Part shown: positions 6,498 to 63,374 of the stretch, in pieces | Position numbering within the stretch: the stretch's first letter is position 1 | Layout: each line of letters starts with the position of its first letter | Assembly (NCBI GenBank): GCA_026184295.1 | Contig: JAHCJK010000006.1 | Location: forward strand, 4,891-68,890 | DNA from: Planctomycetota bacterium | GTDB taxonomy: Bacteria; Planctomycetota; SZUA-567; H5-PLA8 | Length of the DNA stretch: 64,000 nucleotides | Direction: 5' to 3' | Notes under the pieces: model-generated | The model's database searches: none | What the model saw: the letters and a program-made list of their open reading frames with translations, nothing else | Told to the model about the DNA's origin: nothing | Translations under genes and position numbers: made by a program

Positions 6498-7937
6498 CTA
6501 CGCCCCCGCCGTGCAGAGCCCGTAGATCGTGTAGACGGCGAAGCCCGTGTAGACGCACGTCGCCACGAGCATCATGACAATGCAGAACGGACCCGGGCGC
6601 GCGGACTTGGGCAGGTAGCGCAGGTTCATGTAGAGCATCAGCGGCACGTACACGGCCATCGCGATCCCGCCCATGAACGCGGCGTTGGTGAGGAACGCGA
6701 GCCCCGAGGTGCCCTTCCAGTGTTCCATCACGAAGGTGATGCCGACGCCGGCCACGATCCAGGCGCCGGCGATCACCGCGTACCACCAGGATAGCTCGCG
6801 CTTCTGCGCGCCGGCGAAGTTGGTGTAGACGATGTCCGCGATGGAGCGCGCCACGCCGTCCACCAGCGCCAGTTGGGTGCTGAAGAGCGTCGCGACGCCG
6901 ACCATGAGAAAGATCACGCGCCCCGGCGCGCCCCAGACTTCGCCCAGCACCTGCGCCTCGTCCCAGATCAGCGAGCCCGCCCCGGGGACGATGCCCTTCG
7001 GGTGGAGCACTGCCAGCGAGCCGAAGATGAAGAGCATGATCGTCAGCGAGTTCAGGAACCAGAAGAAGAGCAACTGGTCCTGGACGATGTACTTGAACCA
7101 GCTTTTGAAGCGCGCGCCGTTTTCCGCGTTATCTTGGTAACGGAAGCCCGTCGAAGGGATCGTTTCGTGCCGTCCGCGCAGCAGGTTCGGCATCGCGGGG
7201 ATGTGCGCGCCCATGCCGATGTTCTTGTCGCGCAGGTAAAAGGTATAGAACAGGTTCGCCGTGCCGCCCGCCCCGGCGAAGACGAGCAGGATGAAGAAAT
7301 CCTTCGTCGCGACGCCTTCGGGCACGTTGGGGATGTTGACCAGCCCCGCGCCGAGTTCCTTCCAGACGCTTGACGTGCCGACGACCACCGCGACGGCGAT
7401 CAGCCCCAGCGTGACGATCGCGACCATCACCTCGATGGAGATTTCGACCGACTTGTAGACGACCTTGGGGCCGAAGAGCAGCAGCGCGACCGCGCCGAAG
7501 GTGAGCGCCGTCCAGCAGGTGTCCGAGCCCCAGAAGGAATCCTTGGCGAACTCGGGCGAGAAGATCAGCGCTTTGAGCGCGTTGCCGCTGGCGCGGGCCC
7601 AGCCCGGCGCGATCCAGCCGAGGATCGTGAGCAGGATGAAGACCGGCGCGAAGCCGCGCCAGACGCGCGCGAAGCCGGTAAAGACCGTCTCGCCCGTGGC
7701 CACGGTCCAGCGTCCGACTTCGAAGTTGATCCAGAGCTGGAGGAAGACGCCGAGGACCGCGGCCCAGATCATGCCCGCGCCGTGCTCCGCGACCGAACGC
7801 GGCCAGATGATGATCTCGCCCGCGCCGATGGACAGACCGACCAGGATCGCGCCCGGGCCGGCCATCTTCCAGAAGCCCAGCGAACGCTCCGGGAGGTCGG
7901 CCTGTTTGAAATCGTTCAACGGCGCAAAAAGAGCCAT
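6498..7937 (-). CDS. Nramp-family-like polytopic membrane transporter
   Basis: Start trimmed to MALFAPLNDF (ATG at 7937). About 11 hydrophobic segments. N-terminal GPGAILVGLSIGAGEII resembles Nramp/MntH-related transporters. The substrate cannot be inferred. Confidence 0.55.
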   Translation of the reverse strand: MALFAPLNDFKQADLPERSLGFWKMAGPGAILVGLSIGAGEIIIWPRSVAEHGAGMIWAAVLGVFLQLWINFEVGRWTVATGETVFTGFARVWRGFAPVFILLTILGWIAPGWARASGNALKALIFSPEFAKDSFWGSDTCWTALTFGAVALLLFGPKVVYKSVEISIEVMVAIVTLGLIAVAVVVGTSSVWKELGAGLVNIPNVPEGVATKDFFILLVFAGAGGTANLFYTFYLRDKNIGMGAHIPAMPNLLRGRHETIPSTGFRYQDNAENGARFKSWFKYIVQDQLLFFWFLNSLTIMLFIFGSLAVLHPKGIVPGAGSLIWDEAQVLGEVWGAPGRVIFLMVGVATLFSTQLALVDGVARSIADIVYTNFAGAQKRELSWWYAVIAGAWIVAGVGITFVMEHWKGTSGLAFLTNAAFMGGIAMAVYVPLMLYMNLRYLPKSARPGPFCIVMMLVATCVYTGFAVYTIYGLCTAGA

Positions 7938-8156
7938 ACGCAGGCGGCCCCCGGGTTTCGATTGCCTTGGTCGTGTTGAAAATAGAGCAGGCAAGCACCC
8001 TAACGCATTCGAAGAAAAACTGCATTTTCGATTCTGGGTGAATGCTTCACCGCGGAGGCGCGGAGGACGCGGAGCACGGCCCGTATTGGGCACGGAGCTG
8101 CCACAATGAGCTTTTACAAGCTTGCTTGGACGGTGTTCTTCCAGGACACCGGCGCC

Positions 8157-8278
8157 CCCTCACCCTCAATCCCTCTCCCCCGCAACGGCGCGGGGGCGAG
8201 GGAGGACTGGGCAGGTGAGGGTCTGTTGGCGGCGCGGGGACGAGGGAGGACTGGCAGGTGAGAGTCTGTTGGCGGCGT
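8157..8278. repeat. GC-rich REP-like hairpin plus a 43-44 nt tandem duplication
   Basis: ccctctcccccgc...gcgggggcgaggg forms an inverted repeat. The unit gggg(g/a)cgagggaggactgg(g)caggtgag(g/a)gtctgttggcggcg occurs twice in tandem (about 8192-8235 and 8236-8278). Confidence 0.75.
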
Positions 8279-8341
8279 GGTGGTGGTCGGCAAAAGGCGG
8301 CGAAGTCCACCTTCACAGTTCTGTTTCCTGCGTGCTGTCGC

Positions 8342-8419
8342 CAGGTCCCAGGTCCCAGGTCACTGTCCTCTGTCCTCCGATCCCTGTCCTCTGATCCCTG
8401 TCCCCTGATCCCTGTCCGT
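8342..8419. repeat. Short tandem repeats (7-mer caggtcc x2-3; 14-mer tgatccctgtccyc x3)
   Basis: caggtcccaggtcccaggtca, followed by cgatccctgtcctc tgatccctgtcccc tgatccctgtccgt. Noncoding, upstream of rpsU. Confidence 0.8.
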
Positions 8420-8554
8420 TCGCTCTTGGACTTGCGCGGCGCGCGGGTCTGACTATCCTTTTGCGCACTCCGGGCGAAGTGGGGGCGTGCCTCGTGGGAG
8501 GCCGGCGGTCCGGAGTCTCGTTGTTTTTGGCGTTTAGCAAGTGACGGAGATTGC

Positions 8555-8746
8555 ATGATCCGCGTGGAAGCCCGTGCCGGCGAGTCGCTCGACAAGACGC
8601 TGCGCCGTTTCAAGAAGCAGTGTGAGAAGGAAGGTCTGACGAAGGAAATGAAGAAGACCTCCTATTTCGAGAAGCCCAGCGAACGCAAGCGCCGCAAGAT
8701 GCGCGTGAGCGAGAAGAACAAGGAAAAGGCTGGGCGCACGAAGTGA
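8555..8746 (+). CDS. rpsU: 30S ribosomal protein S21 (bS21)
   Basis: 63 aa. MIRVEARAGESLDKTLRRFKKQCEKEGLTKEMKKTSYFEKPSERKRRK matches the bS21 pattern (..ALRRFKR.CEK.G......R..YEKP...RKR). Confidence 0.9.
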   Translation: MIRVEARAGESLDKTLRRFKKQCEKEGLTKEMKKTSYFEKPSERKRRKMRVSEKNKEKAGRTK

Positions 8747-8749
8747 GGT

Positions 8750-8772
8750 TTGTCGGGAAGCCGACAGACGTC
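8750..8772 (+). terminator. Hairpin immediately after rpsU (possible terminator, no clear T-tract)
   Basis: gtttgtcgg-gaag-ccgacagac: a 9 bp stem (one G-U pair) with a GAAG loop. Confidence 0.35.
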
Positions 8773-9006
8773 AGTTCAAATTCTACCAATCCGGCCCAAC
8801 GAACGCGTCCCAAGGGCGTCTAATTCGCCAAAGGCCGCGCGTATTCCCGTTCGATGCTTGCCGAAGTAAATCGACACGGTTATAGAGAGCGCCTTGTTTT
8901 GCCGCGCACACACGCGGTACGCGTGAAACGCGCGGGCTTCCGTGTTTTCCATATGACAGCCGGACGTTGCTAAATCCAGCCGCGGGGTGGCAGGGAGGGG
9001 ACGGGC

Positions 9007-11625
<2,619 letters not shown>

Positions 11626-22732: not shown

Positions 22733-23212
22733 ATGAAGAGGAACGTGTGGGTGTGGGGGTTGGTGCTGGGGCTGTGCGTGCTCGCGGCGCCGGTGATGAA
22801 GGTCCGCGCCGAAGGCGAAGGCGACAAGAAGGAAGCCCGCAAGGCGCGCAAGGGCGGCGGCGGCTTCAACCTGATGCTCGTCGATACGATCCAGGAGAAG
22901 CTGGGCACCGGCGAAGGCATGGTCCTGACCGAAGATCAGAAGACCAAGATCAACGCGCTGCGCGAAGACCTGAAGAAGAAGTTCGACGAGAAAATGGCCG
23001 CCGGCAAGGAAAAGATCGACGGCGCGAAGACCCCCGAGGAACGCAAGGCCGCCTACAAGGAAGTGATGGGCGACTTCAAGGCCAACGAGGAATACAAGAC
23101 GGGCCTGAAGGGCATCCTCAGCGAAGCCCAGTTCACGAAGCTCTTCGAAGGCGCCAAGGAAGAAAAGAAGGAAGAGAAGAAAGAGGACATGAAGGAAGAG
23201 AAGAAGGAATAG
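22733..23212 (+). CDS. Secreted K/E-rich low-complexity protein, function unknown
   Basis: Start trimmed to MKRNVWVWGLVLGLCVLAAPVMKVRA|EGEGD, followed by a charged helical region and a KEEKKEEKKEDMKEEKKE tail. Confidence 0.55.
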   Translation: MKRNVWVWGLVLGLCVLAAPVMKVRAEGEGDKKEARKARKGGGGFNLMLVDTIQEKLGTGEGMVLTEDQKTKINALREDLKKKFDEKMAAGKEKIDGAKTPEERKAAYKEVMGDFKANEEYKTGLKGILSEAQFTKLFEGAKEEKKEEKKEDMKEEKKE

Positions 23213-23239
23213 CTCCGCTTCTTTCCCCGCCGGACCCTC

Positions 23240-23270
23240 GGCGGTTCACGGAAACGTGGACCGCCGTTTC
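23240..23270 (+). terminator. Hairpin terminator after 22733..23212
   Basis: ggcggttcac-ggaaac-gtggaccgcc followed by gtttc: a 10 bp stem with one mismatch. Confidence 0.5.
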
Positions 23271-23524
23271 AATTATACATTGTTAGTAGCGGATACATTC
23301 TAATCATCAATACAATTTGGGTTAACAAGAATTCGACAAAAATTCGTTGGTGCAGAAAAATTTCCGCTTAGTGCATTTTATACCAAACTCATGAAACAAA
23401 TGAGATACGTATTGCGTATTTTTATTGAATATTTCTATACGGCGATATGACCAATAACGTAATCCCTTGGAGCGATGATATTGCGCGAAGATAAGGGATG
23501 TATATTTAATACTGGAGACAGATC

Positions 23525-23980
23525 ATGCGTAGTTTTTCCTGGACATTATTAATTCTAGCTATTGTTTGTACTGGTAGAATTCGGGCTGAAGATGCAACCC
23601 TAACGGAAGTTAAAGTTGTATTTCATACAACCGATGACGACAAGGACCATGATACAACTCTCTCAATGTGGATTAAGATTGATACCAAGACACTCGCCTA
23701 CAGCGAAGGGTTTGCAAATAATACGCGATTTCCTGATAAGACTGATAGTTCGCCCTTCCCGCTTGGAGAAGTAGATAAGAAGATTTCCAAACAGGAAGTC
23801 GCTAAGGGAGTCAAGGCTCGGCTTAAAATGACAACAAATGGAGACGATAATTGGTGGTTTAAGTTTACAGTTACATTTAAGTTCTCGGACGATAGCACTA
23901 TTGTAATGGAAATGACTGAAAATACGAAGTTTGATGACGATGAAACTACCGACAAGACGTGGGATCTAAAGCCAAAGTAG
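23525..23980 (+). CDS. Small secreted D/T/K-rich protein, orphan, in AT-rich islet
   Basis: 151 aa. Signal peptide MRSFSWTLLILAIVCTGRIRA|EDAT. Beta-strand-like alternation (VKVVFHTTDDDKDHDTTLSMWIKI; WWFKFTVTFKFSDDSTIVMEM). ggagaca RBS 5 nt upstream. No family recognised. Confidence 0.65.
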   Translation: MRSFSWTLLILAIVCTGRIRAEDATLTEVKVVFHTTDDDKDHDTTLSMWIKIDTKTLAYSEGFANNTRFPDKTDSSPFPLGEVDKKISKQEVAKGVKARLKMTTNGDDNWWFKFTVTFKFSDDSTIVMEMTENTKFDDDETTDKTWDLKPK

Positions 23981-24020
23981 GGCGACTTTCGAGTTCAATA
24001 CTAGAAACAAGTATAAGATT

Positions 24021-24057
24021 TGCGCGATCAAGTATTGCCTTGGTCGCGCATTCTTTC
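24021..24057 (+). terminator. Hairpin terminator after the islet ORF
   Basis: tgcgcgatca-(10 nt loop)-tggtcgcgca followed by ttctttc. Confidence 0.5.
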
Positions 24058-24167
24058 ATGTACCTAAAATTGAGCGCGTTGAAGCGATAAAAAGATCGGC
24101 ATGGTCATGTGCGAATTTTCCCCTCAGACTCCGGCCGGGACCTAACCTCGCTAGCTTTTCCGCTGCG

Positions 24168-25577
<1,410 letters not shown>

Positions 25578-25650
25578 GGAGGCTCCCCTCTCGGATTGAA
25601 CTCGGACCGGGCGTGAGACGTACGTATATCCCAAGCGCGGCGAATTTCGA

Positions 25651-31990: not shown

Positions 31991-32105
31991 CACCGTCCTT
32001 AGTTTGAATCTGTCATCAGCATACGTATCATCTACCCTCTGCATGCCGCACTACGATCCGGTTCGGCGTTGTCACTTTTGGGTTTATCCGGGGTGGGTGT
32101 ATCTC

Positions 32106-33977
32106 ATGGCTTCCGGCGGCGCGCACATTCATCACGTCCTGCATACCCTGGCCCGGCGGGTCTCCGCCTGCACCGGCCTGCCCGACGAGAAGATTCTGGG
32201 CATGCTGCGCCCGCCGCCCAAGGCGGAAATGGGCGACTACGCCTTTCCCTGCTTCGAACTGGCCAAGGAAAAGAAGAAGGCCCCGCCGGTCCTGGCGAAG
32301 GAACTCGCCGAGGTCCTGATCCGCGACGTGGAACTCGCGCAGGTCGTCCACCGCGTCGAAGCCGAGGGCCCGTTCCTGAACTTCCACGCGCAGCGCGGGG
32401 TGCTCTGTTCCGCCGTCCTGCGCAAGGTCTGCGACCCGACGGCCCCGTACGCGCAGAGCGGCGAGGGCGCGGGCAAGACGATCGTCATCGACTACAGCGC
32501 GCCGAACATCGCCAAGCCCTTCCACGTCGGGCACCTGATGAGCACCGTGCTGGGCGCGTCGCTGGTGCGCATCCACCGGCTGCTGGGCTACAAGGTCGAA
32601 GGCGTGAACCACCTGGGCGACTGGGGCACGCAGTGCGGCTACCAGTTCCTGGCGTGGCAGCGCGCCGACCCCAAGGTCCGCGAGGAACAGCTCGCCGCGC
32701 GCGGCCTGGAGTACCTCGTGGAACTGTACGTCGGGATCAATCAGCCGGCCAAGACGATCAAGGGCCTGGAAGAGGAACTGCTCGACAAGAACATCGCCGT
32801 GCAGCCCGATATGCGCGCCAAGCTCGAGGCCCAGATCGCGGAGCGGAAGCCCGCCGCGGACGAGATCGACCGCGAAGCGCGCGCGCTCTTCAAGAAGCTC
32901 GAGGACGGCGACGCCGAACTGCGCGCGCTCTGGCTGCGCATGCGCGAGACCACGCTGGCCGTCCTGCAGAAATCGTACGACCGCCTGGGCGTCTCGTTCG
33001 AAAGCAGCGCGGGCGAGGGCTTTTACGAAGAGTACATGAAGAAGATGGTCAAGGAGCTGAAGGACGGCGGCAAGCTGACCTTCAGCGAGGGCGCGTGGGT
33101 GATCCCGCTTTCGGAAGAAGGCGCGAAGAAAAAGCGCCCGCCCTTCATCATCATCAAGAGCGACGGCGGCACGAAGTACGACACGCGCGACCTGGCCGCG
33201 GCGATCTACCGCAAGGAGACGTACGGTTTTTACAAGAACCTGTACGTGGTCAGCGTCCCCCAGTCGGCGCACTTCGAAGGCCTGTTCCTGGCGCTCGAGA
33301 AACTCGGGCACGCCTGGGCGAAAGACTGCGTGCACGTCAGCTTCGGGATCATGCAGATCAAGGAAGGCGACGAGACGCTGCCCATGAGCACGCGCAGCGG
33401 CCGCATGATCCCGCTCAACGAACTGCTCGACACGATGGTGGAGATCGTCCGCAAGATCGTCGAGGAGAAGAACCCCGAACTGCCCGCGGCGCAGAAGGCC
33501 GTGGTGGCCGAGGCCGTCGGCGTCGGCGCGATCGTCTTCTGGATCCAGTCTCGCCGGCGCACCAGCAACATCGTCTTCGACTGGAAAGGCGCGACGAGCC
33601 CCGAGGGCGACACGGGCCCGTACGTCCAGTACACCCACGCGCGCGCGTGCAGCATCCTGCGCAAGTTCGGCGCGAAGGTCCCGCTCCAGGCCGACCTGAC
33701 GCTGCTCGTGGAAAACGAGGAACTGGCCGTCTGCAAGCAGCTCGAACGCTTCCCCGCCGTCGTGCAGGACGCCGCCGCCGGCTACGAACCGTCCCTGATC
33801 GCCACGTGGCTGCTGGAAACTTCGCGCGCCTTCAACGACTTCTACAACAAGCACCAGGTCCTGAAGGCCGAGCACCTGAACCTGATGCAGGCGCGCCTGG
33901 TCCTGGTGGACGCCACCCGCGCGATGCTCGCCAAGGGCCTGGGCCTGCTGGGGATCAGCGCCCCAGAAGAGATGTAA
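32106..33977 (+). CDS. argS: Arginine--tRNA ligase
   Basis: Start trimmed to MASGGAHIHH (ATG at 32106). HIGH motif SAPNIAKPFHVGHLMST, GDWGTQCGY, MSTRSG (KMSKS equivalent) and a C-terminal DALR anticodon-binding domain. Confidence 0.95.
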   Translation: MASGGAHIHHVLHTLARRVSACTGLPDEKILGMLRPPPKAEMGDYAFPCFELAKEKKKAPPVLAKELAEVLIRDVELAQVVHRVEAEGPFLNFHAQRGVLCSAVLRKVCDPTAPYAQSGEGAGKTIVIDYSAPNIAKPFHVGHLMSTVLGASLVRIHRLLGYKVEGVNHLGDWGTQCGYQFLAWQRADPKVREEQLAARGLEYLVELYVGINQPAKTIKGLEEELLDKNIAVQPDMRAKLEAQIAERKPAADEIDREARALFKKLEDGDAELRALWLRMRETTLAVLQKSYDRLGVSFESSAGEGFYEEYMKKMVKELKDGGKLTFSEGAWVIPLSEEGAKKKRPPFIIIKSDGGTKYDTRDLAAAIYRKETYGFYKNLYVVSVPQSAHFEGLFLALEKLGHAWAKDCVHVSFGIMQIKEGDETLPMSTRSGRMIPLNELLDTMVEIVRKIVEEKNPELPAAQKAVVAEAVGVGAIVFWIQSRRRTSNIVFDWKGATSPEGDTGPYVQYTHARACSILRKFGAKVPLQADLTLLVENEELAVCKQLERFPAVVQDAAAGYEPSLIATWLLETSRAFNDFYNKHQVLKAEHLNLMQARLVLVDATRAMLAKGLGLLGISAPEEM

Positions 33978-34037
33978 GGCTTTTCGAATCCTATCATTTG
34001 TAGTAGGATAAAGTGTGGGAGAAATGGAGTACTGAAT

Positions 34038-35213
34038 ATGCTTTTGCACTTGGGCCTTAAAAACTTTCGTTCTTTGAAACACGTAAATATAAAATTTACC
34101 TCGCCAATGAGTGTTATTATTGGCGCTAACAACACCGGAAAGAGTTCAATACTCCAAGCTATTAACATGTTGCATGCATTTTCTATCGGTCGCCTGAGTG
34201 AAGTATTTAGCGGCTTAAATGGAATAGATCTAATTAAGAGCATTGGATTAGACTCGCCAATCGAATTCTTCGTAATTCTTGAAGGTCATTCTCAAAATGG
34301 TTACGCAGTGCAATTTGAATATAGACTCGAAGTAACAATGCAAGACATAACTGGGTTAACTGTTCGTAGCGAAGAGCTCTTGCGCAGAATATCTGATGGC
34401 ACCGTGGAGCAGTTGCTTAATCGCGCTCCTGGGCAATCTCACTGGACCTATCTTGATGAAGCGAGCCAAAAATCAGAGAGCTATCATGGTGATCCAACAA
34501 CACATGCGCTTCCTCACCTTCAGGATCGTATAAAAAATAGACACATACAAGAGTTCAAGGCGCTCCTATCATCAGGCTGGGTGATGGATATTCAGCCTCG
34601 AAATATGCGCACTATTTCACCTGTTAGACCTAATACTATGATATCCTGGGACGGAAGTAATCTTGCAACAGTACTTGATGGACTTTTGGGTGAGCACCCA
34701 GAGGCGTTTTATCAATGGAAGAAGGATCTAGCCAGATTAGCTCCAGAAATTAAGGAGGTTTTGCTTCGCTCAACTGATGATGGGAAAAAGTACGTTGTAT
34801 TCCGTGAAAATAATCTAACTGAACCAATTTCAATTTTTCAAGCCAGTGATGGCTTGTTACGAATAATGGCGATTCTTGCTGCGTTACATTCGTCTTGGAA
34901 GCCAAATCTCTTAGCTATAGAAGAACCAGAAAATGGCATTCATCCCCGTCGACTCGAACAAGTGGTTGACCTGCTAAGGTCATACTCTGAAGGGACAACG
35001 GATGGTATTCGACGACAGGTAATAATTACAACCCACTCTCCCTATTTAATCGATGAAGTACATCCTGACGAAATATTCTTAACTTCCAAAGACGAAACAG
35101 GAGTATCCATTCGACCAATCGAGGACAAGGCACTTCTTGAAAAGCTATTAGAAGACGCAACGCTTGGCGAAATTTGGCATAGAGGTTCTGTCGGAGGTGT
35201 TCCGACGTTATGA
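34038..35213 (+). CDS. ABC-type (AAA_21/AAA_15-like, OLD/AriA-like) ATPase
   Basis: 391 aa. Walker A IIGANNTGKSS (34122-34145), WDGSNLATVLDGLL, signature-like FQASDGLLRIMAILAAL, Walker B/D-loop LLAIEEPENGIHP (34911-34946), H-loop VIITTHSP. Confidence 0.8.
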   Translation: MLLHLGLKNFRSLKHVNIKFTSPMSVIIGANNTGKSSILQAINMLHAFSIGRLSEVFSGLNGIDLIKSIGLDSPIEFFVILEGHSQNGYAVQFEYRLEVTMQDITGLTVRSEELLRRISDGTVEQLLNRAPGQSHWTYLDEASQKSESYHGDPTTHALPHLQDRIKNRHIQEFKALLSSGWVMDIQPRNMRTISPVRPNTMISWDGSNLATVLDGLLGEHPEAFYQWKKDLARLAPEIKEVLLRSTDDGKKYVVFRENNLTEPISIFQASDGLLRIMAILAALHSSWKPNLLAIEEPENGIHPRRLEQVVDLLRSYSEGTTDGIRRQVIITTHSPYLIDEVHPDEIFLTSKDETGVSIRPIEDKALLEKLLEDATLGEIWHRGSVGGVPTL

Positions 35214-35749
35214 AGATTGGAATTTGGGTTGAGGGCTTTACGGACTCCGCATTTTTCCCTACAATTGCAAAGAGAATATTGGGGGAAGAACATGAACAAG
35301 TGATTCGAGATCGGCGTGGTGGCTGCATCCACCAAATGCACATTGGATTGCCCAAAGCAATTAAAGAATTTTCCATCCACAATTGCTCTCATATTCTAAT
35401 ATGTGCAGACAACCACAGAACTTCTCCTGGTCTTGCCGCGAAAAAGAAATCTGATGCCATAGCTATGACTATGGGCAAGCCAACTATTGTTGCAGTTGCT
35501 CTTGAAAGCTTGGAGGCCTGGATGCTGGCTGATTATGTTTGTCTAAGTCGGATTCTAAACATTCCAAACATTAACAAGCCCCCAAAGGTAGAAGGGATTA
35601 GCGATCCCAAGAACTATTTAAAAAGTGTTTGTGGAACCTATCCAACAAATCAACAAATAGTGGAAATTGCTAGTTCAATGTCCTTGGAAGTAAGAAGGGA
35701 AGTTCCAAGTTTTGACCTGTTTCTTCGTGACTTAGATGGATGGTTGTAG
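35210..35749 (+). CDS. DUF4276-family protein (Toprim-like fold suspected)
   Basis: 179 aa. ATGA overlap with the upstream ATPase gene. N-terminal MKIGIWVEGFTDSAFF (strand + conserved Glu at 35231-35233), HILICADNH, and VALESLEAWMLAD (35504-35533). This is the pattern I recognise for DUF4276, which typically partners with an AAA_21-type ATPase. Confidence 0.65.
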   Translation: MKIGIWVEGFTDSAFFPTIAKRILGEEHEQVIRDRRGGCIHQMHIGLPKAIKEFSIHNCSHILICADNHRTSPGLAAKKKSDAIAMTMGKPTIVAVALESLEAWMLADYVCLSRILNIPNINKPPKVEGISDPKNYLKSVCGTYPTNQQIVEIASSMSLEVRREVPSFDLFLRDLDGWL

Positions 35750-35781: not shown

Positions 35782-36801
35782 ATGCTGATCGTACTCAAGC
35801 CCGATGCCACCCACGCGCAGGTCGAGAAGGTCTGCGCGGAGGTCAAGAAGCAGGGCTTTCAGCCGCATCCCATGCCGGGCGCGGGGCGCACGGCCATCGG
35901 GATCACCGGCAACAAAGGCCCGGTCAACCCGCTGCCGTACGAGGCGTTGCCGGGCGTCGAGCAGTGCATCCCGGTCACCAAGGCGTACAAGCTGGTCCTG
36001 CGCGAGATGAAGCCCGAGGGCACGCGCTTCAAGATCAAGGGCACCGAAGTCGGCGGCGGGAAGAACTTCACCATCATCGCCGGGCCGTGCTCGGTCGAAT
36101 CGGCCAAGCAGATGACGGCGGTCGCGAAGTTCCTCAAGGACCAGGGCGTTCACATCCTGCGCGGCGGCGCGTTCAAGCCCCGCACGAGCCCCTACAGCTT
36201 CCAGGGGCTGGAAGACGAAGGCCTGGCGATCCTGAAGGAAGTCGGCGAGAAGGAAAAGATCGCCACGATCACCGAGGTGATGGACACGGCCGCGGTCGAG
36301 GCCGTCGAGGCCAGCGCGGACGTGCTCCAGATCGGCGCGCGCAACATGCAGAACTTCTCGCTGCTCAAGCGCGTCGGCAAGGCCAAGGCCCCGGTCTTCC
36401 TCAAGCGCGGCATGTCCGCGACGCTCGAAGAGTTCCTGCTCGCGGCGGAGTACGTCCTGCACGGCGGCAACCATGGCGTGATTCTGTGCGAGCGCGGCGT
36501 GCGCACCTTCGCCGACCACACCCGCAACACCCTGGACCTCTCGGTCGTGCCGAGCGTGCAGAAGCTTTCGCACCTGCCGATCTTCGTCGATCCCAGCCAC
36601 GCGATCGGCAAGCGCGAGTTCGTCGAACCGATGGCCAAGGCCGCGCTGGCCTGCGGCGCCGACGGCCTGATGGTCGAAGTGAGCGACGATCCCGACCACG
36701 CGCTCTCCGACGGCGCGCAGACGCTCAGTTTCAAGGGGTTCGAACGCTTGTTGCAGGAGTTGAAGCCGCTGGCCACGGCCTTGGGCAGAAAAATCAATTA
36801 G
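35782..36801 (+). CDS. aroF: 3-deoxy-7-phosphoheptulonate (DAHP) synthase, class I-beta, with N-terminal regulatory extension
   Basis: Start trimmed to MLIVLKPDAT (ATG at 35782, gaggagacacc RBS). IAGPCSVES, LRGGAFKPRTSPYSFQGL, IGARNMQN, CERGVRTF, DPSH. Confidence 0.9.
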   Translation: MLIVLKPDATHAQVEKVCAEVKKQGFQPHPMPGAGRTAIGITGNKGPVNPLPYEALPGVEQCIPVTKAYKLVLREMKPEGTRFKIKGTEVGGGKNFTIIAGPCSVESAKQMTAVAKFLKDQGVHILRGGAFKPRTSPYSFQGLEDEGLAILKEVGEKEKIATITEVMDTAAVEAVEASADVLQIGARNMQNFSLLKRVGKAKAPVFLKRGMSATLEEFLLAAEYVLHGGNHGVILCERGVRTFADHTRNTLDLSVVPSVQKLSHLPIFVDPSHAIGKREFVEPMAKAALACGADGLMVEVSDDPDHALSDGAQTLSFKGFERLLQELKPLATALGRKIN

Positions 36802-37832: not shown

Positions 37833-38954
37833 TCAGTCCTTGGCGCTTACCGGCATCAGGACGTACAGGAAGTCGCTGCCTTCGCGAATCACGCCGGGGC
37901 GGGAGCTGTCCTTCATCTCCATGCGCAGCGTCTCTTCGTTCAGCACCTTGAGCGCGTCCTGCACGTACTGCGGATTGAAGGCGATGCCGATCTTGTCGCC
38001 GCCGAATTCGACTTCGACGGTGACGGCGGCCACGCCCTTGTCGGGGCTGCGCGCTTCGATCAGCAGCGTGCCGGGCGTGAAGGTAAGCGATACCGTGCGC
38101 GTGTCGTCGCTGGTCAGGTAGGCGGCCTTGCGCAGCGCCTGCAGGACGGCCTCGCGCTTGAACGTGGCCTCGCGGTCGCTGTCCTTGGGGATCACCTGCT
38201 GGTACTTGGGGAAGATGCCTTCGACGACCAGGCTGGAGAGCGTGGTCGCGGCGTCTTCCTTGCCGCCGCGCACGAGCACCGAGCGCCCGCGCACCGCGAG
38301 TTCGATGTTCTCGCCTTCGGCCATGCGCCCGCAGAGCTTGCGGATCTCCTGCATCATCTTGATGGGCACGATCACGCCTTCGTCGATGCCGCCGCCGGCC
38401 TTGAGCTTGCGCTTGCAGTAGGCCAGGCGCCGCCCGTCGGTGGCGACGAGTTCGAGCAGCTTGTCCTTGTACTGCACGAAGACGCCGTTGATCGCGTAGC
38501 GGCCCTGCTCGCGCGCCGCGGCGAAGACCGTGCGGTCGATCATCTGGCCCAGTTCGGAGGCCGGCACGCTGACGCTGGCGCCTTCGCCCAGTTCGGGGAC
38601 TTCGGGGAAGTCGGAGGACTCCTGCCCGAGAATCTCGAAGCGGTCGCGCCCGATCTTCAGGATGCCCTTGCTGCCTTCGGTCTCGAGCGTCACGACGTCC
38701 TCGCTGCATTCCTTCAGCAGGCCGGCGAGCGTGCCGCAGGGCAGGCAGAGCGAGGCGGGGTCTTTGACCGATTCGGCTTTGAACTTGTAGCGCAAACCAA
38801 CCTCCAGGTCGGTCGCGCGAATCTCAAGTTCGCCGTCTTTGCTCGCGACGAGCAGGGCGTTCTTCAGATTCGGGCGCACGCTGCGCAGCGGAACGACCGC
38901 GGCGGCGGCATCGAGCGCGGCGAGGAAGGGTTCGCGTTTAACCACCAGTTTCAT
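37833..38954 (-). CDS. dnaN: DNA polymerase III beta sliding clamp
   Basis: 373 aa. MKLVVKREPFLAALDAAAAVVP.RS..P.L.N.LL......LEIRATDLEVGL, ...ATDGRRLA..., FNPQYVQDALK. Three-domain length. Confidence 0.9.
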   Translation of the reverse strand: MKLVVKREPFLAALDAAAAVVPLRSVRPNLKNALLVASKDGELEIRATDLEVGLRYKFKAESVKDPASLCLPCGTLAGLLKECSEDVVTLETEGSKGILKIGRDRFEILGQESSDFPEVPELGEGASVSVPASELGQMIDRTVFAAAREQGRYAINGVFVQYKDKLLELVATDGRRLAYCKRKLKAGGGIDEGVIVPIKMMQEIRKLCGRMAEGENIELAVRGRSVLVRGGKEDAATTLSSLVVEGIFPKYQQVIPKDSDREATFKREAVLQALRKAAYLTSDDTRTVSLTFTPGTLLIEARSPDKGVAAVTVEVEFGGDKIGIAFNPQYVQDALKVLNEETLRMEMKDSSRPGVIREGSDFLYVLMPVSAKD

Positions 38955-39629
38955 GAATCACCTCTAAGCGTTGTTGGGCCGTACGATGTTGTATGGTATT
39001 TAAAAATCATCAACATCAACATCAGGACCGACGAAAGCTGTGAATAACTGCTCCGCGACGGGCTTAACTTCCGTCACACGGAATCGTTACCGCCGACAAA
39101 CCGAGCGTGAGGCATCCGTGGAAAAGCGGTGTTATTCATCCCAGCATCGCCGTGGATGATCCGGATAACAGCCGCCGCTTCCTTTTCTAGGCGTAGGGCC
39201 GCCGCGCGGGCACAGGCACAAAGGGTCGAGTTCTGCTGGTCCATCTTAGGGTGCCTGGATGCGTTGGTCCGTTCGGAGGCCCTGTTGATCGCGGTGGAAA
39301 ACAACGCGCCTCACGAAATCTTCATCGAATCCCAATTCAATGGTTAAGGGACCGTAAAACGACGGTTCTCCACACCTAATTCACACGTGCCCGGCGCAAT
39401 TCGTTGGAGTCCGTGCGATTAAGCGCGGCAAAGTGGGCGGAGTCTATGCCATTTTTTGGGGTAGTCAAAGCCTTCTTACTACGTCTCTACCTAGGCGAAC
39501 CCCACCAACCGTTAGGGTGGTTTCGATGCGCTAGATGCCGTCTGTAAAACGCTTTCAAGCATCGAACCTTTGTGTTAGATTCGGGTCCCTTGCGGCTCAG
39601 CAAGGTCCCAGCCTTTCGAGGAGGTCCCT

Positions 39630-54804: not shown

Positions 54805-57800
54805 CTACTTCGAGACGGCTTTGTAGTAGTCTTCGACGGGCTTCCGGTATTCGGGCGCGACCTTGGCCTGCCCCTGTTCGATCAGGCGGCGCAGGCTGTC
54901 TTCCTGCAACTCGCCCGGGCGGCTCTGCACCGACTTCAAGTCCTGCGCCTTCTCCGAAAGATTCGAGCGCACGCGCCCTTCGGCTTCCTTGCGGGCGGGT
55001 TCCTCGGCGCGCGGCGGCGCGGGGCCTTCGGCCTCCGGCGCGGGCGTCTTCTCGATCTTGTCCTTCAGCGCCGTGCGTTCCTTCTCGTCGAACTTCCGCA
55101 CCGAACTGTTCAGGCTCTCGACGGCTTCGCGCAGCAGCGCGGTGGTGTCCTGCCCCAGGTCACCCTTGCGCATGCGCGTGGCCGCCTCGGTCATGCGGTC
55201 GCGGATCGGGCGCAGGTCGCCGCTGGTGGCCGGATCGGCCTCGGTCTTCTTCGTCGCCGGGTCGCTCAGTTCTCTCGGCGCCTTGTCGGGCCCCGTTTCC
55301 CCGCTCCCGCCGCCGCCGTGCCCGGGCTTCCCACTGCCGCCCTTCCCGTTCGTGCCCTTCGAATTGGACGGAGTTCCTTGGCCCTGGCCTTGTCCCTGGC
55401 CTTGGCCTTGTCCCTGGCCTTGGCCTTGTCCCTGGCCTTGGCCTTGTCCCTGGCCCTGACCTTGTCCCTGGCCCTGACCTTGGCCTTGCCCCTGACCTTG
55501 TCCCTGGCCCTGACCTTGTCCCTGGCCCTGACCTTGGCCTTGTCCCTGTCCTTGTCCCTGCCCTTGGCCCTGTCCCTGCCCTTCGCCTTGCCCCTGACCT
55601 TGTCCCTGTCCTTCGCCCTGGCCCTGGCCTTCGCCCTCTCCTTCGCCCTGGCCGCTCTTGCCTTTTCCGGATTGGCCTTGTTCGCCTTCTCCTTCGCCCA
55701 GGCGGGGTTTCTTGCCTTCGCTGTCGCCGCTCTGGCCTTTGGGTCCTTCCGGACCGGGCTGTTCGCCTTGACCCTGCTCGCCCTGCGGGCCTTTCGCGCC
55801 GCCTTCTTCCTTCTCGCTGCCCTGGCCCTTGGGACCGTTCTGGCCCTGTTCGCCGCCGGACTGAGCGTTCTGCCCCTGCTCGCCGTTCTGTGCACCGTTG
55901 GGACCCTGCGGGCCCTTCGGGCCGTCCTGTCCGGGCTGCCCGGTCCTGCTCGGGCCTTCCGGACCTTTCTTCTCCGTCTGGTTCTGCGGGCCCTGCGGGT
56001 CCTGGCCGGACTCGTTCTGGTTCGCGGCGTTATCCTGAGCTTTGGGTTCGTTCTTGCCGTTCGCGCCGTCCGAGTTTTCCTTCGGGAGGTCCTCGTAGCC
56101 TTTTTCCTTCTCCTTATGGTTCTGGGCGTCGGCGAGCTGCTTCTCCTCCTGCGCCTTCCGTTCGATCAGCTCGTTGAGCCGTTCGACCAAACGCTGCTGT
56201 TCCTCGGCAAGTTCCTCAAGCTTCTTGCGGTCGCCGCTCTCCTGCGCTTCGCGTTCGAGTTTGCGCAGCAGCTCTTCCTGGTCCTTGCGCAGCTTCGCGA
56301 GTTCCTCCTCGGTGCGCGGATCGTCGCGCGCCTCGTCCTTCTTGCCGTCCTTGGACGGTTCGGTCTTCTCCTGCTTGTCGGCGGTCAGGCGTTCGACCTC
56401 GTCCTTGGGGCCCGGGTCGAGCTTCTTCCGTTCGGCCTCCTGGAGCTTGCGCAGCATCTCCTGGAACGGATCGCGTCGCTCCAGGTTGCGGCGGGCCTGC
56501 TCGGCGTCGGGCTTGCGGCCGGCCTCGCCCGCGATGGGGATGCGCACGTCCTTGCTGGTCACGCGGTTGGGGCTGGGGCAGACGTCTTCGAGCGTCAGGC
56601 GCGCGACGAGCGTCATGCCCGGCCGGGCGTGGACGCGCGCAAGGTCGATGGAGACGGTCGCGTTGAGCGCCGGGGCGGCGAGTTCGGGCGTGCATTCGGC
56701 GAGCAGGACGCGGCGGCCGTCGAGTTCGAAGGCGACGCTGGCGTGGCGCAGGCCCAGGTCGTCGCGGCCGGTGGCGCGGAGCACGACCACGGCGTCGGGC
56801 GCGGCGGGTTCTTCGGCCTTGGCGTCCTCGCGGGTCAGGCCGGCCTCGGGCGGAGCGTCGGGCAAGGCCTTGGCCTGGTAGACGACGCCGGGCGGGCTCT
56901 GGTAGCCGCTGCCGCTGGTGTAGGCGATGCGGTACGAGGCGTCGCGGTCGAGGACGAACTGCGCCGAGAGCGTCTGTCCGTTGACGGCCATGGGCAGCTT
57001 GCCGCCGCGGATTTCCATCCAGGCGGGCACCTGGCCCAGGGCGAGCTTGTCCGCCGGGGGCGGCGGCTGGTTGACGGAGGCGTGCACTTCGATGCGGCTG
57101 CCGGCGACGGCCTGCACGTGGCCGCCGGAGACTTCGCGCGTGGGCCCGTTGGGCGCGTAGATGGGCGGGAGGACGCGCAGGTTCACGGCCGTCACCAGCG
57201 GGCGGTCGATGGGCGTGAGCGTGAAGGGACCCTTTTCGGCGTCGTTGCAGATCACGCGGTAGGTCACCGCGCGCGTGAAGCCGGGGAGTTCCAGCGCGTA
57301 GCGGCCGAGGCCCGTCTGCGCCAGCGCCGCCTCGGACTCGTCGGCGTCGCCCTCGATGCGGTAGCGCAGCAGCGCGGTCTTGGGGAGCTTGCCGTTCGCG
57401 CGGATTTCGAACGTGACGGGTTCGCCGGCCACGACGGCGCCGTCGCCGGGCTGGACTTCCTGAATGGTGGTGTCGCGGGGCGGCGCGATCTCCTGCCAGG
57501 GCTGGAGCGTGCGCTTGAGCGTCGTCCAGAAACTGGAGCCGCACCAGACGCCAAAGAGGAGCAGCACCGCGGCCAGCACGCCCACGGCGCGCCCGCCCCA
57601 GGTCAGCGAGCGCAGGTCCACGACGCGGTCGGCGTCGAGGCCGTTCATGCGTTCGACAGCGCGGCCGGCGAGCAGTTCGGCGGCTTCGCGTTCGTCGCGA
57701 CCGAGTTCCTTGCGGCGGCGCAGGTCGATGTAGGTGATCAGCGCGTCGTCGCTCAGCCCCATGCTGCGGTCGATCGCGCGTGCGTAGCGCAGGGGGTTGC

Positions 57801-60950: not shown

Positions 60951-61185
60951 GACTTGATCCCCCGCGTACAGTTCCCCAGCATCGAAGGGTCGGAGAATTC
61001 TGTTTGGGGCGCGTGGGGAAAAAATAAGGCCTGCGATAAATGCGGGCTTGCGGGCGGTAAGAACAGGGCAAGCCGCAGGTTCAAGCCCGGACCCGGGTTG
61101 CATGAGACAAGACAACAGGCTCCGATTTCCTCTTTACTTACCCGCGCCGCGTTGGAATATGGCGGGCTGACAACCGAAGAGCGTG

Positions 61186-63374
<2,189 letters not shown>

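Follow-up and report, generated by a model that had tools for sequence, protein, structure and literature searches.

A stand-alone HEC-01-type ABC ATPase and DUF4276 gene pair, a candidate defense cassette, in a housekeeping-gene spacer of a Planctomycetota bacterium

The DNA analyzed here, referred to as the window, is a stretch of 64,000 nucleotides (nt) from a Planctomycetota bacterium (SZUA-567; H5-PLA8; GCA_026184295.1, contig JAHCJK010000006.1, positions 4,891–68,890 of the forward strand), and it carries a two-gene cassette in which an ABC ATPase gene is followed by a DUF4276 gene. The first open reading frame (ORF1; 34038–35213, +) encodes a 391-residue HEC-01A-type ABC ATPase (AAA_21/AAA_15), and the second (ORF2; 35210–35749, +) encodes a 179-residue DUF4276/HEC-01B protein, a putative Toprim-like nuclease. 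The stop codon of ORF1 and the start codon of ORF2 share an ATGA overlap of the translational-coupling type (35210–35213, +). ORF1 is preceded by a 60-nt AT-rich leader (33978–34037, +; 38% guanine plus cytosine, GC), with a GGAG located 8 nt upstream of its ATG. On the left, outside the cassette, lies argS, encoding arginyl-tRNA synthetase (ArgRS; 32004–33977, +; Pfam tRNA-synt_1d, DALR_1, and Arg_tRNA_synt_N). On the right, also outside it, a type I-beta DAHP synthase gene (35782–36801, +; Pfam DAHP_synth_1 and DAHP_snth_FXD) begins at 35782 after a spacer of 32 nt from the ORF2 stop. GC content is 42.1% in ORF1 and 41.9% in ORF2, with GC at third codon positions (GC3) of 0.35 and 0.38, as compared to 65.3% in argS (GC3 0.90), 65.8% in the DAHP synthase gene (GC3 0.93), and a window mean of 65.7%. 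GC content changes abruptly, no more than a few bases away from the stop codons of argS (33977) and ORF2 (35749), and the segment 33978–35781 (∼1.8 kb) is therefore foreign DNA, inserted into the argS–DAHP synthase intergenic spacer. The local neighbors of the cassette, as identified with Pfam, are ArgRS, the type I-beta DAHP synthase, a STAS protein, and DnaN; no methyltransferase, recombinase, transporter, or transmembrane partner was found among these neighbors in a Pfam search of the window ORFs. An earlier note on this DNA had proposed the same two ORFs with their ATGA overlap, the lack of a transmembrane or transporter partner, and a horizontal acquisition suggested by foreign composition and isolated position, all of which agree with the GC and GC3 contrast and the housekeeping flanks; its compositional contrast is real, with the figures themselves (37–40% for the genes, ∼70% for the genome) in need of the correction given above.

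ORF1 contains each of the motifs expected of an ABC ATPase, with the key residues conserved among 80 homologs. These are a Walker A motif, GANNTGKS (34122–34145, +), in which G29, N31, G34, and K35 are invariant; an ABC signature-like motif, ASDGLLR (34842–34862, +), invariant at S270 and G272 and nearly so at D271; a Walker B motif with D-loop, LLAIEEPENGIHP (34908–34946, +), in which E295, E296, and E298 are invariant; and an H-loop, ITTHSP (35025–35042, +), in which H333 is invariant. Pfam matches are to AAA_21 (6e-34) and AAA_15 (2e-26), and the best PADLOC match is to HEC-01A (PDLC04182; 5.1e-62), aligning residues 4 to 383 with model positions 6 to 398 of 406. An AlphaFold2 (AF2) model built from the 80 homologs (pLDDT [predicted local distance difference test] 93.1, predicted template modeling score 0.92) has an ABC head, and Foldseek places PtuA (Septu, retron I-A) and the Rad50 head as the solved structures nearest to it (E ∼1e-13, template modeling [TM] score 0.5–0.58). 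By motifs and head fold, ORF1 is an ABC ATPase of the Rad50/SMC/PtuA-like kind. Matches to other named families are lower: MAD3 is the best named NCBIfam family (1e-35; 123.5 bits versus a cut-off of 420), the PtuA equivalog gives 53.8 bits (cut-off 500), the RecF equivalog gives 36.4 bits (cut-off 172) over residues 4 to 46 only, and the PADLOC model for AbiLi gives 2e-29. ABC transporter identity was considered and set aside, as no membrane permease adjoins the pair and transporter models match ORF1 only weakly and locally.

Two parts of ORF1 stand apart in their conservation. A beta-rich insert in the ATPase head (residues 61–165; 34218–34532, +) is the most variable part of the protein, with a pairwise column identity of 0.16 versus 0.43 to 0.50 in the core, and it is modeled with six long beta strands at approximately residues 70 to 150; this insert is a candidate sensor or specificity surface. 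The C-terminal tail, LGEIWHRGSVGGVP (residues 377–391; 35167–35210), is among the best conserved parts, with G377 and W380 invariant and E378 nearly so in the same 80 homologs, and may be a docking site for the DUF4276 partner.

ORF2 matches Pfam DUF4276 at 1e-7 (32.8 bits versus a gathering score of 30.2) and two PADLOC models of HEC-01B, PDLC04210 (2.8e-10) and PDLC04196 (1.9e-8, near full length). Three conserved stretches are present, KIGIWVEGFTD (35213–35245, +), LICADNH (35396–35416, +), and ESLEAWMLAD (35504–35533, +). The first contains E8 and D12 (35231–35245, +; E8 in 71 and D12 in 73 of 74 family members), directly after strand 1 at the position of the Toprim-type glutamate. The second contains D67-N68-H69 (35408–35416, +), after strand 3 at the position of the family D-x-D motif; D67 is found in all 74 members, while position 69 is Asp in 65, His in four, Glu in four, and Lys in one. 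The third contains E102-A-W104-x-x-A-D108 (35513–35533, +), with E102 and W104 in 74/74 and D108 in 72/74. Position 69 is His in six of six aligned members of the close clade described below, giving D-N-H instead of D-x-D. In the AF2 model of ORF2 (pLDDT 88.9), strand 1 comprises residues 2 to 7 and strand 3 residues 61 to 65, and the acidic residues E8 (after strand 1) and D67 (after strand 3) conform to the pattern published for Toprim. The motifs reported for both proteins by the earlier note were thus recovered in full, at or within 3 nt of the positions it gave (Walker B starts at 34908, not 34911), and the Pfam families it expected, AAA_21 and AAA_15 for ORF1 and DUF4276 for ORF2, were found, the latter above its gathering score.

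Assignment of ORF2 to the Toprim fold draws mostly on the literature (PMC12065111; 10.1101/2024.01.29.577857) and on this motif pattern, and our own fold tests were weak, such that the assignment is best described as putative. DUF4276, Mad4, and RloB were all assigned to Toprim in a 2025 paper (PMC12065111). Foldseek ranks an RloB-like protein first for ORF2 among viral models (BFVD), at E 5e-3 and a TM score of 0.53, with a DnaG Toprim domain at rank 20, and the 74 relatives of ORF2 yield single weak Pfam cross-matches to OLD-like_TOPRIM, RloB, and DUF4435. ORF2 itself has no Pfam match to DUF4435 (E up to 0.1), RloB, or OLD-like_TOPRIM and no PADLOC match to AriB or AbiLii, and a PDB sequence search with it returned nothing meaningful. 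The reduced Toprim domain suggested in the earlier note thus remains a putative one, favored mostly by the motif pattern and the published assignments and only weakly reproduced by the Foldseek and hhalign comparisons given below.

With both PADLOC models matched by adjacent, co-oriented genes, the cassette is, by sequence, a divergent HEC-01-type member. HEC-01, an ABC ATPase plus TOPRIM pair, has been described embedded in Hma systems, with a predicted metal site resembling that of BpOLD (Payne et al. 2024, bioRxiv 10.1101/2024.01.29.577857), and is among the 12 most abundant system types in one survey (PMC12881386). The earlier note had placed the pair among the defense systems that combine an ABC ATPase with a Toprim-type protein, and the HEC-01A (5e-62) and HEC-01B (2.8e-10) matches support that placement; its further view, that the pair is a distinct member without experimental characterization, no longer holds, as the pair is the named and already catalogued candidate HEC-01A plus HEC-01B, a representative has been tested, and genetics exist for the homologous mad3 and mad4. 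Close relatives are few. An exhaustive protein search of 1.84 billion cluster representatives identified only two DUF4276 representatives more than 40% identical to ORF2 (46% and 43%), the next being 29% identical; a word-based homolog search with ORF2 returned the query alone, and an exact look-up of the ORF1 sequence found no record. The close relatives of ORF1 are the same few, at 37 to 47% identity over the aligned regions, followed by a drop to ∼32%. Judged from these identities, the cassette belongs to a rare, divergent HEC-01 subclade.

The close clade consists of four distinct homologous cassettes, all four with the ATPase gene followed by the DUF4276 gene. One (L001 to L003) lies beside a type I-alpha DAHP synthase gene, one (L004) follows a MeaB-like gene and has a DUF4276 ORF that is uncalled in the source annotation, one (L085) lies between an NAD synthase gene and a gene for a 605-residue protein, and one (L086) is on a short contig. 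An ATGA-type short overlap is also present in L004 and L086, and in L001 and L085 ORF2 starts within a few nt of the ATPase stop. On the three contigs long enough for comparison, cassette GC versus flank GC is 0.61 versus 0.67, 0.49 versus 0.60, and 0.46 versus 0.59. The DUF4276 partner in L004 (9173–9748) has a GTG start and departs from the family over its C-terminal third, possibly through a frameshift or decay.

More distant relatives show the same arrangement. Metagenomic relatives of the ATPase number 80 among the matches listed (23–42% identity; the close clade is not among them), and in 57 of the 66 with enough downstream sequence, again among the matches listed, a DUF4276 ORF lies directly downstream on the same strand. 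The order ATPase then DUF4276 is likewise found in L001, L004, L085, L168, L169, L176, and L178, and all 74 DUF4276 family members match HEC-01B, 39 of them also matching mad4 weakly. The pairing of ATPase and DUF4276 is obligate. In 29 of 32 relative pairs, the GC content of the cassette is lower than that of its flanks (mean 6.6 points, among the matches listed), and the gap of ∼24 points in the window is the largest among the compared pairs. The insertion point differs in every genome examined. Defense matches near the 20 long loci are few, comprising a single HmaB and HmaC, one type IIG enzyme, a UvrD-like helicase, and a handful of others. The planctomycete loci L168, L169, L176, and L178 present the same picture, sometimes beside small toxin-antitoxin genes; toxin-antitoxin-like neighbors are DUF4160/DUF2442 in L001, PIN in L168, and DUF433/DUF5615 in L178. 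Given the pairing, the low GC relative to flanks, and the varied metabolic surroundings of the relatives, the two genes form an obligate unit, one that passes from genome to genome and inserts at different places, not typically in defense islands. A survey of whether homologous pairs are syntenic and enriched in defense islands had been proposed in the earlier note; the relatives are paired and occupy variable sites, and enrichment in defense islands was not found.

How the unit moves is not apparent from the cassette itself. No integrase was found among its neighbors, no tRNA or other RNA at the cassette (Rfam), and no convincing end repeats or target duplications at its borders; the cassette ends are not conserved among clade members, and the leader is only loosely similar to that of L085. 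No plasmid homolog of ORF2 was found, and viral copies are few (three weak matches to ORF2 in 2.9 million viral contigs). An empty argS-aroF junction was sought in a sister genome by a DAHP synthase scan of genome contigs; the best match was only 59% identical, and no close host relative was therefore found. Separately, in five Pyrinomonadaceae loci (L025, L029, L032, L033, and L059; at ∼7900–11000 in each), argS immediately precedes a type I-beta DAHP synthase gene, the spacer being ∼50 to 160 nt. This junction looks like an uninterrupted form of that in the window, the ArgRS proteins being only 23 to 26% identical.

The closest relative of the cassette (L001, 6582–9715; 44% identity) also adjoins a divergently oriented DAHP synthase gene; the enzyme it encodes belongs to the non-orthologous type I-alpha and gives no tblastn match to the type I-beta enzyme of the window, and the shared neighbor is probably a coincidence. 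The cassette is 2 kb from dnaN, and the pair in Aquisphaera giovannonii (L168) is 2.8 kb from dnaN. A dnaN- or DAHP-synthase-linked location was rejected as a general rule, given that dnaN is near only two of ∼30 long loci and that the second DAHP synthase is of a non-orthologous type. In the window, a lower-GC (0.54–0.57) non-coding stretch (∼38955–39629) comes after dnaN (37833–38954, −) and could be a replication origin. A second AT-rich islet is found at 23200–24100 (GC 0.35–0.42 versus ∼0.65); it carries an orphan ORF (23525–23980, +) encoding 151 residues, which have no Pfam match and a hydrophobic N terminus resembling a signal peptide, and it adjoins a class II aminoacyl-tRNA synthetase gene (24168–25634, −), comparable to the position of the cassette next to argS. 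Elsewhere in the window, an 18-nt tandem repeat of 15.5 copies (55375–55653), strongly T-skewed (AT skew −0.74), apparently codes for a low-complexity run rich in Gly and Gln on the minus strand, and a thiamine pyrophosphate riboswitch (61182–61289, +) narrowly passes the Rfam gathering score (55.5 versus 54.3 bits).

Taken together, these data are interpreted, with moderate confidence, as a HEC-01-type pair in which the ATPase would sense infection and control a metal-dependent nuclease. The mechanism is drawn by analogy with PARIS, Septu/PtuAB, OLD/Gabija, and the genetics of Mad3-Mad4, with PARIS and PtuAB serving as the best templates. In outline, an oligomer of the ORF1 ATPase would hold or regulate the small ORF2 nuclease; the variable insert or the nucleotide cycle would register a phage cue or product or an altered ATP state; and this cue would free or activate the metal-dependent ORF2 nuclease, for which E8, D67-x-H69, E102, and D108 would form a Toprim-type acidic constellation. 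The nuclease would then cut nucleic acid, either DNA or RNA such as tRNA, and the cutting would stop propagation of the phage or another mobile element, possibly at the cost of the cell. Much less confidence is attached to any particular nuclease substrate than to the reading as a whole.

Several observations count against an active defense pair of this kind. The HEC-01 representative tested by Payne et al. gave no protection against any phage in Escherichia coli (10.1101/2024.01.29.577857). A 2026 Nature Communications study of cold-seep microbes does favor defense, reporting that a HEC-01 representative picked at random made E. coli B resistant to one or more of T4, T5, and T7 (PMC12881386); this positive report concerns one distant representative, without mechanism (PMC12881386). 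With respect to the fold of ORF2, DSSP assigns only three strands to the model, the fourth expected from the Toprim fold, a three-layer alpha/beta sandwich with a parallel sheet of four strands, being of low confidence (∼residues 92–98); no PDB structure matched by Foldseek had an E value below 0.03, and the 50 matches listed include no Toprim; and hhalign with P2 Old aligned the strand-1 Glu region at a probability of only 1.6%. Because the second Asp of D-x-D is His, catalysis may also be altered or lost. At the level of expression, a scan of the cassette for sigma-70-like promoters and terminators gave matches at chance level only, and the codon usage of the cassette is very unlike that of the host. 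Lastly, the neighbors within 5 kb in the 20 long loci are mainly metabolic (epimerases, aminotransferases, glycosidases, and peptidases); most shortlisted candidate systems were likewise found outside defense islands by Payne et al. (bioRxiv 10.1101/2024.01.29.577857).

The isolated, compositionally foreign form of the two-gene unit and its variable sites would also suit a selfish module of the addiction or exclusion type, whose nuclease would target the host or rival mobile elements and plasmids, to the benefit of the cassette rather than for anti-phage immunity. Toxin-antitoxin-like neighbors in L001, L168, and L178 and the one test without a phage phenotype (10.1101/2024.01.29.577857) point in this direction, as does MADS, in which the methylase gene mad5 is deletable only if mad2 or mad3 is also deleted (10.1101/2023.03.30.534895). 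Loss of mad5, being tolerated only with loss of mad2 or mad3, ties the ATPase to a self-harming activity, and indicates that such a module can harm the cell. The cassette, however, has no mobility gene and no end repeats; ORF2 has no plasmid homolog and only the three weak viral matches noted above, and one HEC-01 representative did protect against phage (PMC12881386). A selfish module is regarded as unlikely.

A separate question is whether the small clade is a functionally distinct offshoot of HEC-01, in which D-x-H alters metal or substrate use (e.g., toward RNA as in PARIS) and a naked cassette of ∼1.75 kb lands precisely in housekeeping-gene spacers without a recombinase of its own. This we judge to be rather unlikely.

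It is quite unlikely that the cassette is a stranded module of a methylation-linked MADS or Hma system, in which Mad3-Mad4-type genes would have been captured, or would have remained, without the methylase, helicase, and other parts, and would now be inert or expressed only at low levels. HEC-01 pairs were first found embedded in Hma (10.1101/2024.01.29.577857), MAD3 is the best NCBIfam match of ORF1 (1e-35), 39 of 74 DUF4276 relatives weakly match mad4, and one relative locus has HmaB and HmaC neighbors. Nonetheless, the MAD3 score (123.5 bits) is far from its cut-off of 420, the cassette is flanked by the ArgRS and DAHP synthase genes at junctions of 60 nt and 32 nt with no other foreign DNA, and most relatives, including all of the close clade, stand alone as pairs whose ORFs are intact and whose catalytic positions are conserved. 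Finally, a RecF/RecR-like pair that serves replication or repair close to the origin rather than immunity is very improbable: RecF-RecR also combines an ABC ATPase with a small Toprim protein, the ORF1 N terminus matches RecF, RecN, and Rad50 models, and the pairs here and in A. giovannonii lie 2 and 2.8 kb from dnaN, but the RecF equivalog match is limited to 36 bits (cut-off 172) over residues 4 to 46, a GC3 of 0.35 in a genome of GC3 0.9 argues against a core gene, and proximity to dnaN is found in two of ∼30 long loci, the position varying among genomes.

The interpretation as a HEC-01-type pair in which an ATPase would control a nuclease opens no new category of system. HEC-01-type pairs are widespread; the cassette is a clean, minimal example, with two genes, no methylase, no other foreign DNA, and sharp borders. 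What merits attention is this stand-alone minimal form, the sharp borders between two housekeeping genes, the rarity of the clade, and the D-x-H site, a natural variant that provides a ready-made probe of the nuclease site. Its GC content of 42% may also ease expression in E. coli as compared to host DNA of 66% GC.

Among known systems, membership in MADS, PARIS, AbiL, OLD/GajA, Septu PtuAB, or RecF was rejected on scores or partner domains, and each of the defense systems shares part of its design with the window pair. OLD and Gabija GajA also join an AAA_15/21-type ABC ATPase to a Toprim nuclease, with the two domains fused in one protein, whereas the window pair is encoded by two genes and ORF2 lacks an OLD-like_TOPRIM match. 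Septu and retron I-A PtuA-PtuB follow the same logic of an ATPase oligomer controlling a small nuclease, and PtuA is the closest solved structure to ORF1; the Septu partner is an HNH nuclease rather than DUF4276, and the PtuA equivalog score is far below cut-off. AbiL (AbiLi with the RloB-like AbiLii) is likewise a two-gene combination of an ATPase, similar to ORF1 at 2e-29, and a small putative Toprim protein, but ORF2 has no RloB sequence match, one of 74 relatives touches RloB weakly, and the fold resemblance is weak. MADS3-4 and AbiL have been grouped with PARIS among ABC ATPase plus TOPRIM systems (PMC11464382). The domain pair of MADS Mad3-Mad4 is homologous to that of the window, and MADS is the only system with genetics showing that both genes matter for defense, as deletion of mad3 or mad4 weakens it and each is required (10.1101/2023.03.30.534895). 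In contrast, the window has no methyltransferase or mad6-8 nearby and a MAD3 score far below cut-off; with no methylase nearby, MADS-style methylation cannot be the self/non-self signal here. PARIS, in which AriA is paired with AriB (DUF4435), has the same split between an ABC ATPase and a small Toprim effector and offers the best model for the mechanism, its ATPase assembly keeping the nuclease sequestered and a phage trigger leading to release of the nuclease and to tRNA cleavage (PMC11464382). The 304-position AriA model matches the same residues of ORF1 as Pfam AAA_21; the window pair differs in that ORF2 has no DUF4435 match and ORF1 carries the beta-rich insert. Closest is HEC-01 itself, with the same two adjacent, co-oriented genes, HEC-01A then HEC-01B, both of whose hidden Markov models match here, and an ATPase of the same fold class with a beta-sheet Insert 1. 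Relative to the HEC-01 described inside Hma, the window cassette is a stand-alone pair of a rare subclade, with D-x-H in place of the family D-x-D.

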